This document shows, one piece after another, positions 32,369 to 63,417 of a stretch of DNA of 64,000 nucleotides (within the stretch, counting starts at the first letter, position 1; each line of letters starts with the position of its first letter). The translations under genes were made by a program, and so were the position numbers. The notes below the pieces were generated by a model. It had not been told where the DNA came from. It was given only the letters and a program-made list of their open reading frames with translations, and did no database searches. The stretch is from Thermotogota bacterium ADurb.Bin062 (lineage in GTDB: Bacteria; Thermotogota; Thermotogae; MWEM01), in NCBI GenBank assembly GCA_002071085.1, contig MWEM01000006.1, forward strand, positions 10,198 through 74,197, given 5' to 3'.

Positions 32369-33679
32369 CTAGAACGGAAGACGGCTCAACCCTTTAGGCC
32401 CCATTTTCCCGATTTTTTTCACCATCTTCTTCATGTTTTCGAAGTTATCGAGCAATTTCGTGACCTCTGGAAGCGGTCTCCCACTACCTAAGGCGATCCT
32501 TTTCTTTCGGCTATAGTTGATCAGCTTTGGGTTCGCGCGCTCCTTTTTCGTCATCGAACAGATGATCGCTTCCACGTGTTTAATCTGCTTCTCGTCAACG
32601 GTGACACCCTTCAGCTTGCTCCCACCGGGAAGCATTTCCAAGATCGACCGTAAGGAACCCATTTTTTGTATCTGGCGGATTTGCTCCAAGAAATCGTTAA
32701 AGGTGAAGTCCGCTTTCCTGAGTTTCTTTTCGAGCTCTTTGGCTTTCTTTTCGTCTATCGTTTGCTCCACCTTTTCGATGAGTGAGAGCACGTCGCCTAA
32801 CCCGAGTATGCGCGAGGAAAGACGGTCGGGGTAAAAAGCCTCCAACCCGTCAATCTTCTCGCTGACCCCGATGAACTTGATCGGCTTTCCGGTGACGCTT
32901 CGAATCGATAGGGCAACACCGCCGCGGGCGTCTCCGTCCATCTTCGTCAAGACGAACCCGGTCACCGCTAAGCGGTCATTGAATGTTTTCGCCGTTTGAA
33001 CCGCATCCTGCCCGATCATCGCGTCCAAAACCATCAAGACCTCGTCGGGCTTGACGATCTCCCGTACCTTCTCCACTTCGCGCATCATCTCTTCATTGAT
33101 GTGAAGCCGACCGGCGGTGTCGAAGATCACCACGTCATATAGGGACCCGATCGCCAACTTCATCCCCTCTTGACAGATCTTGTCGACGTGGCGCCGATCC
33201 CCGGAAAAGACGGTGACGCCTATCTCCGCGCCTAGTATTTCGAGTTGATCGATCGCGGCAGGGCGATAGATGTCCGCGGCGACCAACAGCACTTTCCGCC
33301 CTTCGCTCTTGATGATGCGCGCAAGCTTCGCCCCGGTCGTGGTTTTCCCGCTACCCTGTAGCCCAACGAGCATAATCGGCGAAGGTTTCTGGGTGAAACG
33401 GAGCTTCTCGTGCTTTTCTCCCATCAACGCCGTCAGCTCGTCTCGGACAATTTTGATGAATTGTTGGTCCGGCGTCAGACTGTTGAAAACCTCCGCGCCT
33501 ATGGCCTTCTCTTTCACCTTTTCGATGAAGTCTTTGACCACTTTGTAGTTGACATCGGCTTCCAGCAACGACAATTTGACCATCCGTATCGCTTCCTGGA
33601 TGTTCTTTTCCGATATCTTCCCCTGTCCTCGTAAGGATTTAAACGCTTTTTCGAGTTTTTCTTGCAGGCTTTCGAACAA
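32369..33679 (-). CDS. ffh: Signal recognition particle protein Ffh
   Basis: [25 protein letters not shown] domain; TTG start after GAGGG. Confidence 0.97.
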
Positions 33680-33983
33680 CCAAATCCCTCCTAGAAAAAA
33701 CCTCTCGAGTATACAGTAAAAGGGTATGAGAGTCAATCGAAATGACGCTTTCCCACGAAAAATCTGGCATAAATATGCGTTAATTATAGTTTACGTCGTA
33801 TGCTTGACTCTGTGAATCCATTGGCTAAATGCGTGGGTATAGTATCGAGGTAGAACAAAAAGACGGAAAGCGGAGGAGGAGAAGAAAAACGGCTCTAGTT
33901 TGAGCCGCCATTAGAGCTCATTTGACCCTTCAAGGGGTGGGTAAAGAAGTGTATTTTTCGGCCCCGCGAAGAGTACGAAGACT

Positions 33984-34188
33984 ATCGCGGGGTAACCAGC
34001 AGGCTGGCTTCTTGTGTGTTATCGCGGGGTAAGTGGTTTTCAAGACCCCGCGACCCGCCCCTTCTTAAAAGCGTATCGCGCCGTCGCTAAAAGAAGGAGC
34101 GCTTACGCCGCGATGACCTCACGGACTAAAAATCGCGCGGCCGATTCCGGCCTTGTTTCTTGAGCGCACTCCATAACTTCTCACACAC
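33984..34188 (+). repeat. Mosaic repeat array B (partial W-X-Y-Z)
   Basis: Partial W 33984-34012, X 34021-34053, Y 34071-34115, Z ~34122-34188. Confidence 0.9.
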
Positions 34189-34226
34189 GACCCATCAAAT
34201 CGCGTTCAAGCCTTTTGTCAGACTAT

Positions 34227-34472
34227 CTACATTAAGTGCTTCTTTAACTCTTCCTCGTTTTTCATATCGATTAGCTCAAGGCCCAGAGCATCAAGTTTCT
34301 CTATTGTAAGGGTCTTCAGCCTTTCGAAATATTTCTTCGAAGCCTTAGGGAATTTTTTGGATATTTGTTTCCAAAGCAATTCTTCTCTTCCCTTTTCCAT
34401 TCCTTTTTCTAAGCCTTCTTCTCTGCCTTTTTCTCTTCCTTCCTGTCTGAGCATATCCGCGATTGTTTGCAT
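34227..34472 (-). CDS. Putative internally translated small Rpn C-terminal protein (81 aa)
   Basis: AGGAG at 34480-34484 (minus strand), 7 nt before the in-frame ATG at 34472: MQTIADMLRQEGREKGREEG...KHLM. Confidence 0.6.
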   Translation of the reverse strand: MQTIADMLRQEGREKGREEGLEKGMEKGREELLWKQISKKFPKASKKYFERLKTLTIEKLDALGLELIDMKNEEELKKHLM

Positions 34473-35132
34473 CTTTTCGCTCCTTTCTTCCGATACCGTT
34501 CCCATCAGTTCTGACAATTGTTGGAAATACTCCCCGCCCATCGTTTCGAACAGGTAGATCGTACAGACCTGGAAAAACCGTTCATTCGCTTCTGTCTGCG
34601 GCAATTCCGAAATCGTCACTGCGACTCGGAACATCGTTTCTCGAATCGCTGCTTTTCCCCTGAGCGATCTCATCCTTAGTACGTCCAAATAGATTCGAAG
34701 ACGTTTCGCCCCTTTGACCTCTTCGTCTCTCAATGACGAAATTTCAAACAGTTCATATTTATAGTCTGGGATGTAGTCTTAGAAAACCACGGGGAGAATC
34801 ACTGGCAGAGGCTGCGGTACTGTCTTCTTCCATATGGAGGTCATATACCCCAGGAGCTGAAGGCTCACGTGTTTGTCAACCTTGCTTTTGTGTTCGAACA
34901 GCAGATAGACATACCCCTCTTCCTGTTGCATCTTCACCCGAAAGAGCAGATCGAAGAAGTATTCCGAGAGGTCTTTCTCGACGTAACTGTCTTTTTCTAT
35001 CGTTATCGATTCGGGATCGATTAACCGGACGATCTTCGGAGGTAGATAGTGTTGGAGGAAAGACTTCGCGGTTTCTATATCCCCCAAGACTTCTTTAAAA
35101 AATCTGTCGTGTGACTTACTGATTTTTTCCAC
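34227..35132 (-). pseudogene. Rpn/YhgA-like PD-(D/E)XK nuclease ('putative transposase') with an in-frame TAA
   Basis: HDRFFK, DLLFRV, YLLFEHKS, LQLLGYM, LPVILPVVF then TAA at 34779-34781, continuing in frame DYIPDYKYELFEIS...; AT-richer than the flanks. Confidence 0.85.
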
Positions 35133-35227
35133 GGATATCCCTCCAGAAGAAAGTCTCATCGTATCATACCTCAAAGGCGGGATTTCCAAAAAGAAAAAGC
35201 GTCTCCGCCTTTTTTTCTTTCTCAAAA

Positions 35228-35600
35228 GCGTATCGCGGGCGTCGCGAAAAGCAAAAGCGCTTACGCCGCGATGCTGCCTTCGAGAATGCTCCCAGTGAAA
35301 AGGAAAAACCTGCCAAACTAAAGTTTGGCGTTCCCAGGGCGTTCACAAGTATCTTTTCACAGTGTTTTCTGTGCCCTCCGTGCGAATTCTGTTTTTAGAT
35401 ATGCCAACTTTAAAGTTGGCGTTCCCAGAAATTCTGCCGAACTGAAGTTCGGCGTTCCAAGACGTCCCCTGAGAAAGGCCGACTGGAAGTCGGCCCCACG
35501 AAGAGAAGGGGCGCTTACGCCGCGATGACTACATAGACTAAAAACCCCGCGGCCGATTCTAACCTTGTTTCTTGATTACACCCCATAACTTGACACACAC
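35228..35600 (+). repeat. Mosaic repeat array C (Y-V-U-V-V-T/Y-tail-Z)
   Basis: Y 35228-35273; V 35312-35337, 35403-35428, 35436-35460; U ~35365-35395; T 35477-35499; TACGCCGCGATG seam to 35527; Z ~35535-35600. Confidence 0.9.
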
Positions 35601-35626
35601 CGGCAAAATCCTCGAACCCGGGACTA

Positions 35627-35635
35627 TGTTATAAT
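35627..35635 (+). promoter_or_regulatory. Extended -10 promoter for pgsBCW
   Basis: TGTTATAAT ~45 bp upstream of pgsB. Confidence 0.6.
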
Positions 35636-35679
35636 CGAGAGGTCTCAAGATCATCCATCCCATAGGAGGATGAGCGTCC

Positions 35680-36903
35680 TTGTTCATACTATTGACCGCT
35701 AGCTGTTTGGTCGCCATCTTGACTTACCTGATCTATGAGCAACGACAGCTGAAAAAGTGCTATCGCGCGATCCCCATTCGCGTGTGCGTTACGGGTACCC
35801 GCGGGAAATCCAGCATTACCCGGATGATTACATGGCTCCTACAACGAGAGGGGTTACCCACTTGCGGGAAGATCACGGGCACCAACGCTCGCTTTCTGCG
35901 CCCAGACGGTACGGAAGAGCCGATTGTTCGCAAACGGCCTGCCTCGATCCTGGAACAGAAGCGGATGTTGAGAAGAGCCGCCCAAGAAGGGGCTTACGCC
36001 TACGTAAGCGAAGTGATGAGCGTCACGCCCGAATACCAGAATACCGAAACCAAGCGAATCCTCTCGCCGACCCATCTCGTCATCGCGAACGTCCGAGCGG
36101 ACCATCTATCGGTGACCGGCGCTTCCCTCGAAGAGATCGGCTCTGTCTTCTTCCGGTCCGCCCCAACACATACCCTCATCGTGACGACACGTGACGTGGC
36201 CACACGCTACGGAGCGAACCGTCCCTCATCGCAACGCGTTATTTCAGTGGAGGCCGAACATTTCCCTTTCGACCCGCTGGATTTTTCTTATCCCGAGTTC
36301 CCGGAAAACTACGCTCTCGCCGTTTCCTGCGTGGAAGAGGTCCTGAAATCTCTCTCCGAATTCGACTCGGGCCGACCGGTTCCTAAAGAGAACCTGACGG
36401 ACCCTCGAACGATTTCGATGAAGGGGCTGAGGTCCGATTTCGGCGTCCTTCGAGCGTGGAAAGCATACGGGAAGGTTTTTGTCAGCGGTTTCGCCGCGAA
36501 CGACCCCGAATCGACCGAGTCCATCCTTCAGGCTTGCGAACGAGCCTTCGGCTGGCCCCGAAACGAAGCGATCGGCTGGTGCCACTTGCGTATCGACAAG
36601 GGCGAAAGAAGCTTGCAGTGGCTGGAGGAGTGGCAACAAAAAGGCATACCCTTCCGAAAACTCTATTTGAGCGGCGGACATGCGGTAGCCGTCAAGAGGC
36701 GCCTTCGAAACCCGAAGGTGAGTTTGCTTCGCGAAGCGCCTATGGAGCATATTGTGAAGATCCTATCCGAAGAAACCTCTCCGGCCGTCTTCGGATTCGG
36801 GAATATCAAAGGATTTGGCGCGCGGTTCGTCGAGTACCTCTCCTCCGACCCGGCGAGATTCCCTCCCTGTTCGATACAGGTCACAAAGGAGCGTTTACCG
36901 TGA
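35680..36903 (+). CDS. pgsB: Poly-gamma-glutamate synthetase PgsB/CapB
   Basis: IPIRVCVTGTRGKSS, GKITGT, EVM...PEYQ, NVRADH, FAANDPEST. Confidence 0.9.
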   Translation: MFILLTASCLVAILTYLIYEQRQLKKCYRAIPIRVCVTGTRGKSSITRMITWLLQREGLPTCGKITGTNARFLRPDGTEEPIVRKRPASILEQKRMLRRAAQEGAYAYVSEVMSVTPEYQNTETKRILSPTHLVIANVRADHLSVTGASLEEIGSVFFRSAPTHTLIVTTRDVATRYGANRPSSQRVISVEAEHFPFDPLDFSYPEFPENYALAVSCVEEVLKSLSEFDSGRPVPKENLTDPRTISMKGLRSDFGVLRAWKAYGKVFVSGFAANDPESTESILQACERAFGWPRNEAIGWCHLRIDKGERSLQWLEEWQQKGIPFRKLYLSGGHAVAVKRRLRNPKVSLLREAPMEHIVKILSEETSPAVFGFGNIKGFGARFVEYLSSDPARFPPCSIQVTKERLP

Positions 36904-61416: not shown

Positions 61417-61510
61417 AAGACCTCCCGTGATCCGGTTAAGATAGACGCACGGAAGGTATTATATCAAAAAAAGGGAAGTCGGTTTCTCTGTGCCGCCGGA
61501 GCTCCGAGCA

Positions 61511-61967
61511 CTTGGGAACGCCGCGCTTCAGCGCGGTGTGCCTTGAAAAACAAGGTTCGCACAGAGGGCACAGAGAACACGGAGAGAACAAGCATCGCGG
61601 CGTAAGCGCCTCTTCTCTTCGTGGGGCCGACTTCCAGTCGGCCTGCCTCTCTGGGAACACCTGGGAACGCCAAACTTTAGTTTGGCTTGGTTTCATCTTT
61701 TCATTGGGAGTGTTCCCAAGCCAGCATCGCGGCGTACGCGCCCTTTCTTCTCGCGACGGCGCGATACGCTTTTGTTCTTTATCTTTTCCCTTTTACGAAA
61801 GATCGTATCGCGAGACTTCGTGGGCTTCCGAAGTCAGCCCGCTGGTTACCCCGCGATAACCCCACACGGGCATCGCGGCGTAAGCGCCCCTTCTCTTTGC
61901 GACGGCGCGATACCCTCTTTAGAAGGGCGAAGAAGGGATCGCGGGGTCCCTTCGGTTACCCCGCGAT
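61511..61967 (-). repeat. Mosaic repeat array F (V, U, Y-tail/T, V, Y, W, Y, X)
   Basis: V 61511-61536 and 61661-61686; U ~61545-61588; T 61621-61643; Y 61725-61769 and 61871-61913; W 61807-61857; X variant 61938-61967. Confidence 0.92.
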
Positions 61968-62050
61968 GACCTCCGAGATTCGCTCCACCCTTTTCGGGGA
62001 AAAACACAAAGTCAAAACCAGCAAAAGGTAAAAAGGTAAAAATACAAAAG

Positions 62051-63031
62051 TTAAAAGACCGTCCTGGAAAGGCGAAAGCCGAGGTAGTAGTAGCTGTAAG
62101 TCGGCGTGTAGTAGTACCGACCCGCCGCTCGGCAGTACTGCGCGTTGTGTTTCCAGCTGCCGCCCCGAATCACCCGGTAAGCGCCGAACGCGCCACTACT
62201 CGGCCCTGTCGGGTTTGTTTGCGCGGCGCTTCTGTAATTTCCATACCAGTCGTGACACCATTCCCACACGTTCCCGCTCATATCGTAGAGCCCCAGTTCG
62301 TTCGGTTTCTTCTCGCCTACCGGGTGCGTCTTCTCATCAGAATTGCCGTCGTACCACCCCACTTCGTTTAGGTCGTTGCTTCCTGCGTATTTATACCCCC
62401 TTGAGTTTTGTCCCCCTCGCGCCGCGTATTCCCATTCCGCTTCCGTGGGCAATCGATGCCCTTCTACGTTCGTGATGTCTGTCGTTACCTTTCCGCTCTT
62501 GTCCAGCAAGTTTCCCTGGCTATCGTACGCTTTCTTTATCCCTTCTCTCTCACTCAGCCAGTTGCAGTACCCGATCGCGTCGAACCAACTCACATTCATC
62601 ACCGGCCGCGTCCCGCGGCCCCATTCTTCGTCGCTTGGCTTGCTCTTCCCCGTCGACGCACAGTACGCGTCGCACTCATTGAACGTCACTTCGTACTTCC
62701 CGATCCAGTAGTCGTACGTCAGGGTCACCGTGTGTACCGGCTTTTCTTCGCTGTACTCTTCGCTGTCATTTTCCACATTCCCCATCTGGAAGCTCCCGCC
62801 TTTGACTTTGACCAGAACCGATGTGAACGAAAGAATCGTTTGAAGCTTTCCTTTCGCCTCCAGCAACTGTCGACGGCACTCTTCCGGGTCCGCGCTGCCC
62901 CGCTCTTCGACAATTTTTCCGATGATCCACTGCGTTTCATTAAAGGTGAGCTGCCGCTCCCCTTCACCATTCCACGGTATCCATAACGTCTCTTCGTTTA
63001 TCGCAAGCCTCTTCCTTTTCTTTCTCTTCAT
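62051..63031 (-). CDS. FGE-sulfatase (SUMF1/CLec-fold) domain protein; candidate DGR variable protein
   Basis: GGSFQMG, E.P.H.V, YEVT, PV.NVSW.DA..YC.W, RLPTEAEWEYAARGG, N..GLYDMSGNVWEW, RVIRGGSW, GFR. Confidence 0.92.
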   Translation of the reverse strand: MKRKKRKRLAINEETLWIPWNGEGERQLTFNETQWIIGKIVEERGSADPEECRRQLLEAKGKLQTILSFTSVLVKVKGGSFQMGNVENDSEEYSEEKPVHTVTLTYDYWIGKYEVTFNECDAYCASTGKSKPSDEEWGRGTRPVMNVSWFDAIGYCNWLSEREGIKKAYDSQGNLLDKSGKVTTDITNVEGHRLPTEAEWEYAARGGQNSRGYKYAGSNDLNEVGWYDGNSDEKTHPVGEKKPNELGLYDMSGNVWEWCHDWYGNYRSAAQTNPTGPSSGAFGAYRVIRGGSWKHNAQYCRAAGRYYYTPTYSYYYLGFRLSRTVF

Positions 63032-63060: not shown

Positions 63061-63417
63061 GGCGTAAGCGCCCCTTCTTTTTGCGACGGCGCGATACGAT
63101 TTTGTTCGATCCTTGTTCCCGTTTTAGTTACTTGCTAATGCACGCTTACTACCAAAGATAGGATCGCAAGACTTCGTGAACTCCCGAAGTCAGCCCGCTG
63201 GTTACCCCGCGATAACCTATAAAGTCCGGCGTTCTCGAGCGCAGCATCGCGGCGTAAGCGCCCCTTCTTTTTGCGACGGCGCGATACGCTTTTGTACACG
63301 TCTTGAAAAACAGGGTTCGCACGGAGGGCACAGAGAACACAGAGGAAAAACTGGCAAACAACAGCATTCTCCCGGAAAAAGAAAAGAAATGCCGGACAAA
63401 AGTCCGGCGCTCCCAAG
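63061..63417 (-). repeat. Mosaic repeat array G (Y, W, Y, U, V variant)
   Basis: Y ~63061-63098 and 63245-63289; W 63162-63213; U ~63303-63345; V variant 63391-63417. Confidence 0.9.

Follow-up and report, generated by a model that had tools for sequence, protein, structure and literature searches.

Mobile units in which a passenger gene without a recognised transposase sits between terminal blocks are well known from MICs (MIC231 of Bacillus cereus) and from IS-flanked composites of the Tn5/Tn10 type, where the outermost inverted ends and a target duplication define the unit and the enzyme is supplied from elsewhere. The rpn genes encode RpnL/RpnS toxin–antitoxin nucleases that combine an N-terminal PF04754 domain of PD-(D/E)XK type with a C-terminal DUF4351 (PMC5350276; PMC10400941), and they occur as many paralogs per genome with a patchy distribution. 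They have been published as lacking inverted terminal repeats and target-site duplications and are expected to "hitchhike" with mobile elements, with no example given (PMC10400941).

Here, we analysed a window of 64,000 nucleotides (the whole stretch of DNA under study) in which the first-pass annotation had described an AT-richer Rpn/YhgA-like gene enclosed by two co-oriented repeat arrays between ffh and pgsB. A repeat search and unit HMMs, which were built from the units of the window and then searched genome-wide, confirmed this layout with all array units on the plus strand, and the GC content over rpn is 0.40–0.47 compared to 0.517 for the genome. Array B (W-X-Y-Z) spans 33964–34188 and array C (Y-V-U-V-V-T-halfY-Z) spans 35226–35600; they are part of an insert of 1,770 nt (33831–35600), whose insertion point is 21–28 nt before the -10 box of pgsB. 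In window coordinates, the features are:

32369–33679, minus strand: ffh, signal recognition particle protein (TIGR00959, 591 bits)
33823–33830, no strand: left copy of a candidate 8-bp target-site duplication, GGCTAAAT
33831–33930, minus strand: E cap, left outer terminus, ...CCTCGATACTATACCCACGC on the minus strand (nhmmer family of ~45 copies)
33964–34011, plus strand: W unit (unit HMM; DNA fold -13.8 kcal/mol)
34018–34058, plus strand: X unit (unit HMM; DNA fold -11.2 kcal/mol)
34069–34115, plus strand: Y unit of array B (unit HMM; DNA fold -10.7 kcal/mol)
34121–34188, plus strand: inner Z unit (unit HMM), tail ...CCATAACTTCTCACACAC towards the rpn 3' end
34189–34226, minus strand: rpn 3' UTR, common to all 15 close copies (downstream alignment)
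34227–34733, minus strand: rpn C-terminal reading frame, 168 aa, intact (DUF4351, PF14261 E 5e-11)
34779–34781, minus strand: in-frame TAA at an 81-nt (27-aa) deletion (translation and paralog alignment)
34782–35132, minus strand: rpn N-terminal fragment, PD-(D/E)XK core (PF04754 positions 2–116 of 203)
35163–35168, minus strand: rpn promoter -10 box TATGAT, TATAAT in paralogs (15-copy upstream alignment)
35226–35273, plus strand: Y unit of array C (unit HMM)
35308–35338, plus strand: first V unit of array C (unit HMM)
35341–35393, plus strand: U unit (unit HMM)
35402–35428, plus strand: second V unit of array C (family D3 of the repeat search)
35435–35461, plus strand: third V unit of array C (unit HMM)
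35460–35496, plus strand: T unit (unit HMM)
35497–35527, plus strand: half-Y unit (unit HMM)
35531–35600, plus strand: outer Z unit, right outer terminus of the insert, ...CCCCATAACTTGACACACAC (unit HMM)
35602–35609, no strand: right copy of the candidate target-site duplication, GGCAAAAT (7/8 match)
35630–35635, plus strand: pgsB -10 box TATAAT, 29 nt past the outer Z tail, same box in congeners
35680–36903, plus strand: pgsB, poly-gamma-glutamate synthase (TIGR04012, 228 bits)

The half-Y before the second Z, the E cap at 33831–33930, and the broken state of rpn are additions to the earlier reading. The E cap, which corresponds to C6:44110-44030 in contig coordinates by nhmmer and to C6:44028-44047 by pattern match, contains a terminator-like hairpin (33888–33909), and the W, X, Y, V, and T units fold as hairpins as well. 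In the repeat search, half-Y and Z together appear as a direct repeat of 100 nt (34089–34188 versus 35501–35600, 83% identity) and the Y units as another repeat (34062–34080 versus 35219–35237, 95% identity); the outer Z tail has an exact match at C6:45779-45797. Genome-wide, the unit counts are 320 for W, 170 for X, and 574 for Y, with T being rare (74 copies). The observation that both arrays end in Z is correct for this locus, but 142 of the 147 Z units in the genome terminate an array, so that this ending is generic array grammar and no mark of rpn. The inner Z (ending at 34188) is internal to the insert and belongs to an rpn-linked Z subtype, and 7 of the 15 close rpn copies have the same Z 42–45 nt past their stop. 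An Rfam scan of 33700–35700 with E values up to 1 gave no match, so the repeat units belong to no known RNA family. Two possible roles of Z were considered and rejected: as a promoter part, the TTGACA in its tail lies ~34 nt from the -10 box and thus too far for a -35 element (a consensus promoter scan found no promoter pair at this motif), and solo Z units are not leftovers of rpn 3' ends, since the DNA past most Z tails is unique, carries a -10 box at +28/29, and is not the rpn 3' UTR.

The same 6.7 kb are found in two other public assemblies at 99.97% identity, so the arrangement of the locus is not an assembly artefact. The source genome is a MAG in 200 contigs that is ~94% complete, and some genes may therefore be absent from the data. 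The flanking ffh likely starts at TTG 33679 after GGAGGG, not at 33736, giving the N-terminus LFESLQEKL, and the identical 436-aa product was found in 166 blocks of public assemblies.

Similar to RpnL/RpnS, the enclosed gene on the minus strand matches PF04754 (E 4.5e-38, 131 bits, cut-off 21), TIGR01784 (61.8 bits, cut-off 52.1, on the 126-aa N-terminal fragment), and DUF4351, and the conserved GGAGGGATATCCGTG makes GTG 35132 after GGAGGG its likely start. There is no intact full-length RpnL frame in this copy, which carries an in-frame TAA and the 27-aa deletion (alignment with intact paralogs at the lesion: VVF[YQGREKWEAPQWFSNRFSN.DRMDGDLK]DYIP), and as judged from its sequence it is a pseudogene or split gene. 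Because it is decayed, the window copy cannot be the source of any activity. The same lesion of deletion plus stop is present in copy C46, and a strain contig (L098) is unaligned with the window across 34780 with ~80 extra nt at the break that probably represent the undeleted form of rpn. A run of 4-aa (KG.E) repeats at 34380–34441 (12-nt periodic repeats, family D4 of the repeat search) has a number of repeats that varies from ~2 to ~12 among 10 close rpn copies, which matches the variable 4-aa repeats described for published rpn genes (PMC10400941). The conserved rpn cassette starts ~26–30 nt upstream of its -10 box in the 15 copies, and its blastn homology edge at the other side lies at 34171.

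Comparison of the ffh–pgsB junction in related genomes revealed that the whole 33831–35600 block is absent from two congeners (G001 and G002), where the divergently oriented pgsB and ffh are separated by 165 and 172 nt, respectively, and the flanks are homologous. The rejoined empty site has 33 nt between CTGTGAAT and TATAAT, just like G002 (33 nt) and close to G001 (32 nt), and the pgsB -10 box, which the congeners share, is ancestral. Within the species, none of the public assemblies examined showed an empty site. The two ends of the block face outward (...GATACTATACCCACGC at 33831 and ...CATAACTTGACACACAC at 35600) and are imperfect inverted repeats, with 18 of 30 positions matching between E and Z and the last 8 nt, ACCCACAC, being identical. 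The candidate duplication GGCTAAAT/GGCAAAAT at their outer sides is imperfect (7/8) with a one-base offset.

Such capped elements recur throughout the genome. Flank matches of at least 7/9 at offset 0 are found for 12 of 30 adjacent outward-facing cap pairs, compared to 2.2% for shuffled pairings, and 3 further cap pairs have perfect 8-mers; family-wide, the target duplications are 8–9 bp long. Five rpn copies are enclosed as Z...rpn->...E over 1463–1770 nt and in one orientation. Flank duplications are present at 3 of these 5 composites (that of the window on C6, that on C34 with a perfect AACCCTCC, and that on C50 with 7/8), and none was found at the composites on C33 and C58. A Z-Y-T...Y arm is common to the composites on C6, C34, and C50 plus a partial copy on C23. 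All cap pairs spanning 1.4–1.8 kb contain rpn, shorter pairs are too small for any gene, and rpn is the sole gene found inside capped, duplication-flanked elements.

The enclosure of rpn genes by arrays is far beyond chance. With ORFs of more than 25% repeat removed beforehand, 54 of the 58 rpn gene ends (93%) have a repeat unit at most 150 nt away, compared to only 438 of 4202 other gene ends (10%) and 413 of 1603 ends next to gaps of at least 100 nt, and double flanking is seen at 11 of 14 evaluable rpn loci but at only 41 of 1987 other genes. The situation that would have refuted the first-pass annotation, with arrays placed independently of accessory genes and missing from other rpn copies, is not what was found: multi-copy accessory families are over-represented among double-flanked genes, and other rpn copies do have arrays. 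With 35 members, rpn forms the largest multi-copy protein family of the genome. Across three genomes (G000, G001, and G002), the counts are 32, 4, and 0 for rpn and 155, 10, and 7 for Z tails. Close rpn relatives in other genomes are found only in a same-genus MAG at 62% or more, with the next best at 40%.

We consider it moderately likely that rpn is the cargo of a composite non-coding transposon spanning 33831–35600 that was mobilised by a putative enzyme from elsewhere. Two arms of short hairpin units (E cap-W-X-Y-Z on the left and Y-V-U-V-V-T-halfY-Z on the right) would enclose an rpn cassette of promoter, rpn gene, and 3' UTR, and a trans-acting enzyme may cut at the caps so that the composite could have moved as one piece. 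Landing would have occurred at the upstream edge of the pgsB promoter, where a staggered cut 21–28 nt before the -10 box may have duplicated 8 bp, and after the species had split from its congeners, in which ffh and pgsB stay back to back. Since the same composite with other arm contents is found at 4 or more other loci, rpn probably multiplies by riding inside, or bracketed by, non-coding capped repeat elements. That a defective rpn was copied, with the same lesion in the window and on C46, points to passive copying or to mobilisation in trans. The genome yielded no transposase whose ends match, and IS4-like, IS256, and ISL3 transposases were rejected as source of the caps because their ends are unlike the Z or E termini. 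Of the two alternatives offered by the first-pass annotation, the ends of a composite mobile unit fit the empty site, the inverted caps, the 8-bp duplication, and the 4 sister loci, except that the outer ends are the E cap at 33831 and the Z at 35600 and not two Zs.

Its other alternative, a landing pad, seems rather unlikely to us. A small E...Z element would first have landed at the pgsB promoter and duplicated its target, and rpn and hairpin units would have been added inside later by insertion or by recombination between dispersed arrays, which would then attract and not carry DNA. Rpn-less Z...E elements of 145–1074 nt with duplications are indeed common, and the right arm resembles one of them, on C13, more closely (90%) than it does the arms of the other rpn composites (35308–35601 is 90.5% identical to C13:28918-29213), which suggests that arms recombine or are exchanged and weighs against unit-wise movement. 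Within array C, strain contig L097 departs from the window at 35342, and the inner Z, which completes array B as an E...Z element in its own right, fits nested assembly equally well, but array B lacks a flank duplication of its own (4/9). In nearly all copies, the array ends ~26–30 nt before the rpn -10 box with varying abutting units (Y-linked, W, Z tail, or E cap), which looks like repeated independent docking; yet independent landing would call for ends or a duplication belonging to the rpn cassette itself, which has neither, and the common order and orientation at 5 loci (Z arm, rpn, Z-tail-like, E) make it unlikely that each was built separately.

That Rpn itself is the enzyme is less likely than rpn being the cargo and, in our view, distinctly improbable. 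The Z...rpn...E composites would then be autonomous and the ~150 rpn-less capped arrays their miniature non-autonomous derivatives, with the PD-(D/E)XK nuclease cutting at caps and promoter-proximal targets. We know of no autonomous transposase of this fold. The idea would account for the absence of any other gene from capped, duplication-flanked elements, for the size of the rpn family with 7 of 10 full-length close copies intact, and for ends that are common to no other transposase in the genome; rpn and Z-tail counts also rise together in the genus, but this co-variation is based on three genomes, and G002 has Z tails and Y units with no detectable rpn. Moreover, a dead rpn copy was itself duplicated, the arrays bracket other accessory families too, and other rpn subfamilies have no Z/E caps nearby. 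While the family was first annotated as putative transposase (PMC5350276), a transposase role was judged highly unlikely by later authors (PMC10400941). Least probable, and very much so, is an ordinary REP/BIME scenario in which RAYT-like tyrosine transposases spread the units into long intergenic DNA where rpn merely sits. Y1 transposase-like genes are present at C189:329-847 (92 bits on NF047646, cut-off 80) and C60:223-795 (53 bits), the latter flanked by W/Y arrays, and the hairpin folds of W, X, Y, V, and T would suit such a process. However, the unit rate beside rpn (93%) is far above that of long intergenic gaps (26–34%), the block as a whole represents one insertion when compared to the congeners, and 8–9-bp target duplications and inverted caps as seen here are, to our knowledge, foreign to REP/RAYT spread by IS200/IS605-type enzymes.

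If rpn is cargo as we favour, this locus and its four sister loci would provide a concrete vehicle for rpn spread, a capped, duplication-flanked repeat element with rpn as its sole cargo, accompanied by an empty site in sister species. Mosaic intergenic repeat arrays could then act as composite transposons that bring toxin or defence-type genes to promoter-proximal sites. If Rpn were instead the enzyme, it would be the first autonomous transposase of the PD-(D/E)XK fold with insertion aimed at the upstream promoter edge, and the old "Transposase_31" annotation would be revived.

Among known systems, the locus resembles MICs and Tn5/Tn10-type composites in its passenger gene and outer ends, with the enzyme putatively supplied from elsewhere; it differs in that its arms are modular hairpin arrays and not IS ends and that insertion is directed to a constant spacing from promoter -10 boxes. 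Intergenic mosaic hairpin arrays with a fixed polar order and a distinct terminal module are likewise formed by the BOX elements of Streptococcus pneumoniae and by REP/BIME, and RAYT-like genes, as known alongside REP/BIME, are present and flanked by units here (C60). Unlike our locus, these arrays have no 8–9-bp duplication, related inverted caps, or protein-coding cargo, and no targeting of promoter edges has been described in their case. Bacterial MITEs, among them the Correia elements (CREE) of Neisseria, are similar in that small non-coding elements occur by the hundreds near promoters, have inverted ends and target duplications, and lack a resident transposase, but each Correia element is one unit that duplicates TA, in contrast to the modular, gene-carrying elements of up to 1.8 kb with 8–9 bp described here. 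Compared to published rpn genes, the window copy is broken and at least 3 copies lie inside capped elements with duplications, in conflict with the published view of rpn genes as free of inverted ends and target duplications.

Between ffh and pgsB lies an rpn-family gene enclosed by arrays of short repeat units; the features are:

32369–33679, minus strand: ffh (TIGR00959)
33831–33930, facing ffh: E cap, a terminal unit absent from the first-pass annotation
33964–34188, plus strand: array W-X-Y-Z (unit HMMs)
between ffh and pgsB, minus strand: rpn-family gene (PF04754, TIGR01784, DUF4351)
35226–35600, plus strand: array Y-V-U-V-V-T-halfY-Z (unit HMMs)
35680–36903, plus strand: pgsB (TIGR04012)
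61484–61971 and 63061–63415: arrays around a second gene
62051–63031, minus strand: that gene, with an FGE-sulfatase domain (PF03781, E 1e-55)

The longest ORF of ffh starts at 33736; the TTG at 33679 is favoured by the conserved N-terminus (LFESLQEKL), a GGAGGG site and the public record.

Repeat search, unit HMMs and profile matches bear out the first-pass annotation in that W-X-Y-Z and a second array flank the rpn gene. The repeat search of the window found a 100-nt direct repeat (34089–34188 versus 35501–35600, 83% identical) and several shorter families. HMMs made from the window's units detected about 2,470 units in the 2.89-Mb, 200-contig genome containing it (V 611, U 575, Y 574, W 320, X 170, Z 147 and T 74), and units plus E caps cover 3.5% of this genome. 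W, X, Y, V and T fold as hairpins, and an Rfam scan of the units matched zero families. Z is a terminal cap that lacks any following unit in 142 of 147 cases and is preceded by Y in 101 of the 147; that both arrays end in Z was therefore correctly seen but is a general rule, not a property of the window rpn gene. The E cap (about 45 copies; terminus ...CCTCGATATTATACCCACAC) is a second terminal unit whose end agrees with that of Z at 18 of 30 positions, with the last 8 nt identical, and the two ends form imperfect inverted repeats when facing apart.

Two congeneric genomes (ffh identity 90% and 88%) lack the block: their pgsB and ffh are divergent, separated by just 165 and 172 nt, and keep the pgsB -10 box and recognisable flanks, compared to a gap of 2,000 nt in the window. 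Homology with these congeners stops on the left at ...TGGCTAAAT (33830) and restarts on the right at CGGCAAAAT... (35601), and the 1,770 nt in between run from the E-cap terminus to the outer Z tail. The insert is flanked by a direct repeat, GGCTAAAT and GGCAAAAT, matching at 7 of 8 positions, and removing it with one repeat copy leaves 33 nt from CTGTGAAT to TATAAT, where the congeners have 32 and 33 nt. The block thus behaves like a single insertion, 21–28 nt before the pgsB -10 box, that duplicated 8 bp of its target. Both the comparison with congeners and the duplication support the earlier idea that the arrays are ends of a composite mobile unit, though its true ends are the E cap and the outer Z. 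The ffh-rpn-pgsB arrangement is no quirk of one assembly, and the same 6.7 kb are found in two other public assemblies at 99.97% identity; among named relatives, an uncultured Thermotogaceae MAG is the closest.

Across the genome, arrays are not distributed independently of rpn. With spurious ORFs through arrays removed, a unit lies within 150 nt of 54 of 58 rpn gene ends versus 438 of 4,202 other gene ends (413 of 1,603 where the gap is at least 100 nt), an odds ratio of about 76–99 among copies that are not independent, since composites were copied whole. The association extends to rpn subfamilies of only 36–60% identity. Arrays flank both sides of 11 of 14 rpn loci versus 41 of 1,987 other genes, and in the window the double-flanked genes are indeed rpn and the FGE-sulfatase-type gene. 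These 41 include at least 12 members of a single 22-member P-loop ATPase-like family, as well as AAA-ATPase_like/PDDEXK_9 genes. The 22-member family (430–560 aa, starting VKAMFxMPEKIxYALPE...FVGRKKEFDY, with a Walker-A-like ARRKKGKT motif) had zero matches in Pfam, has arrays on both sides of most members and is outnumbered only by rpn among multi-copy families (examples on the genome's contigs: C11:4831-6132, C11:6780-8453, C11:14899-16200, C30:5177-6478 and C51:13471-15150).

With 35 PF04754 matches, rpn is the largest multi-copy protein family of the genome, and about 15 copies are 77–89% identical in protein to the window copy. Y lies upstream of 14 of these 15, mostly 58–98 nt from the start, and all 15 share a 56-nt 3' UTR whose last 18 nt resemble a Z tail; a full Z follows it in 7 and a terminator hairpin plus E cap in 8. 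The rare unit T occupies the same position in four rpn upstream arms. Five copies, that of the window and those on contigs C34, C50, C33 and C58, lie wholly between outer Z and E caps, span 1,463–1,770 nt and are invariably arranged as Z arm, rpn, Z-tail-like, E. Flank duplications occur at three of these five, the one at C34 being a perfect AACCCTCC. The genome has 30 pairs of neighbouring caps that face outward; 12 of them match at 7 or more of 9 flank bases at zero offset compared to 2.2% of shuffled pairings (about 12 duplicated pairs observed versus 0.7 expected), and perfect 8-mers flank three further pairs. These capped elements are 145 to about 1,700 nt long; every pair of 1.4–1.8 kb holds rpn, and shorter ones are too small for any gene.

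A -10-like hexamer starts exactly 28 or 29 nt past 68 of 146 Z tails, including the one at pgsB (tail end 35600, TATAAT start 35630), and 28–30 nt past the terminus of 15–17 of 45 E caps. The 8-bp duplication fills the first 8 of those bases, which puts the insertion point at the upstream border of the -35 region. A second rpn subfamily (C4:23527-23604 and about 12 paralogs, 44–48% identical to the window copy) has inter-copy DNA homology from a few bases before the -10 box to the stop codon, and most copies have a W, U or E-cap terminus (...CAC) 27–29 nt before that box.

We lean towards the rpn composite having moved as one piece, and its assembly by stepwise nesting seems unlikely. Various array-end types adjoin the rpn promoter with a spacing that is similar from copy to copy, and two cases show that arms of elements are exchanged or rebuilt. 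On contig C13, an rpn-less Z...E element has a Z-Y-T-V-V-U-V arm 90% identical to that of the window. In a same-species strain, contig L097 (ENA ERZ27257490 k141_78868, locus 1-2314; 98.3% identical) leaves the window at 35342, inside the second array, and continues into an MFS transporter/CorA locus in place of pgsB; either arrays mediated a genuine rearrangement here or the contig is chimeric.

Rpn is the only protein encoded inside capped elements and might thus drive them, but we consider this improbable. PF04754 (E 4.5e-38) and TIGR01784 match the N-terminal 126 residues of the window rpn and DUF4351 its C-terminal frame, yet a TAA at 34779–34781 breaks the reading frame and 27 residues (YQGREKWEAPQWFSNRFSN.DRMDGDLK) are absent there in an alignment with nine full-length paralogs, so this is a pseudogene or split gene. 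The paralog alignment reveals the same lesion in the copy on contig C46; a dead copy was therefore duplicated. Contig L098 of another strain of the species aligns up to 34780 and carries an additional stretch of about 80 nt there, which we infer to be the undeleted form. Moreover, one congener has Z tails and Y units but zero detectable rpn: rpn matches and Z tails number 32 and 155 in the window's genome, 4 and 10 in one congener and 0 and 7 in the other, climbing together across three genomes only, and E caps are confined to the first. A published family analysis likewise deems a transposase role of Rpn highly unlikely and expects hitchhiking (PMC10400941).

Among other enzymes, the ends of the genome's IS4-like, IS256 and ISL3 elements bear no resemblance to the caps. 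The IS4-like element (DDE_Tnp_1, 7 copies, ends CTCAACATGTGCGTGG...) lies beside or within rpn copies (C94:640-2014, C30 and C1:26491-27402) and appears to truncate those on C94 and C30. Candidates for spreading the hairpin units are two RAYT-like tyrosine transposase genes:

C60:223-795, minus strand: NF047646, 53 bits
C189:329-847, plus strand: NF047646, 92 bits

The former sits between W/Y arrays, on one side a run of about 18 units in which W and Y alternate. RAYT-type enzymes are not known to make 8-9-bp duplications.

The C-terminal region of rpn contains a tract of 12-nt (4-aa, KG.E-type) repeats (window 34380–34441) whose length ranges between about 2 and about 12 units across paralogs of one genome, mirroring the strain-level repeat variation reported for RpnS. 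Compared to the literature, this probably cargo-bearing, non-autonomous capped element is a new variant that bears directly on how rpn genes spread.
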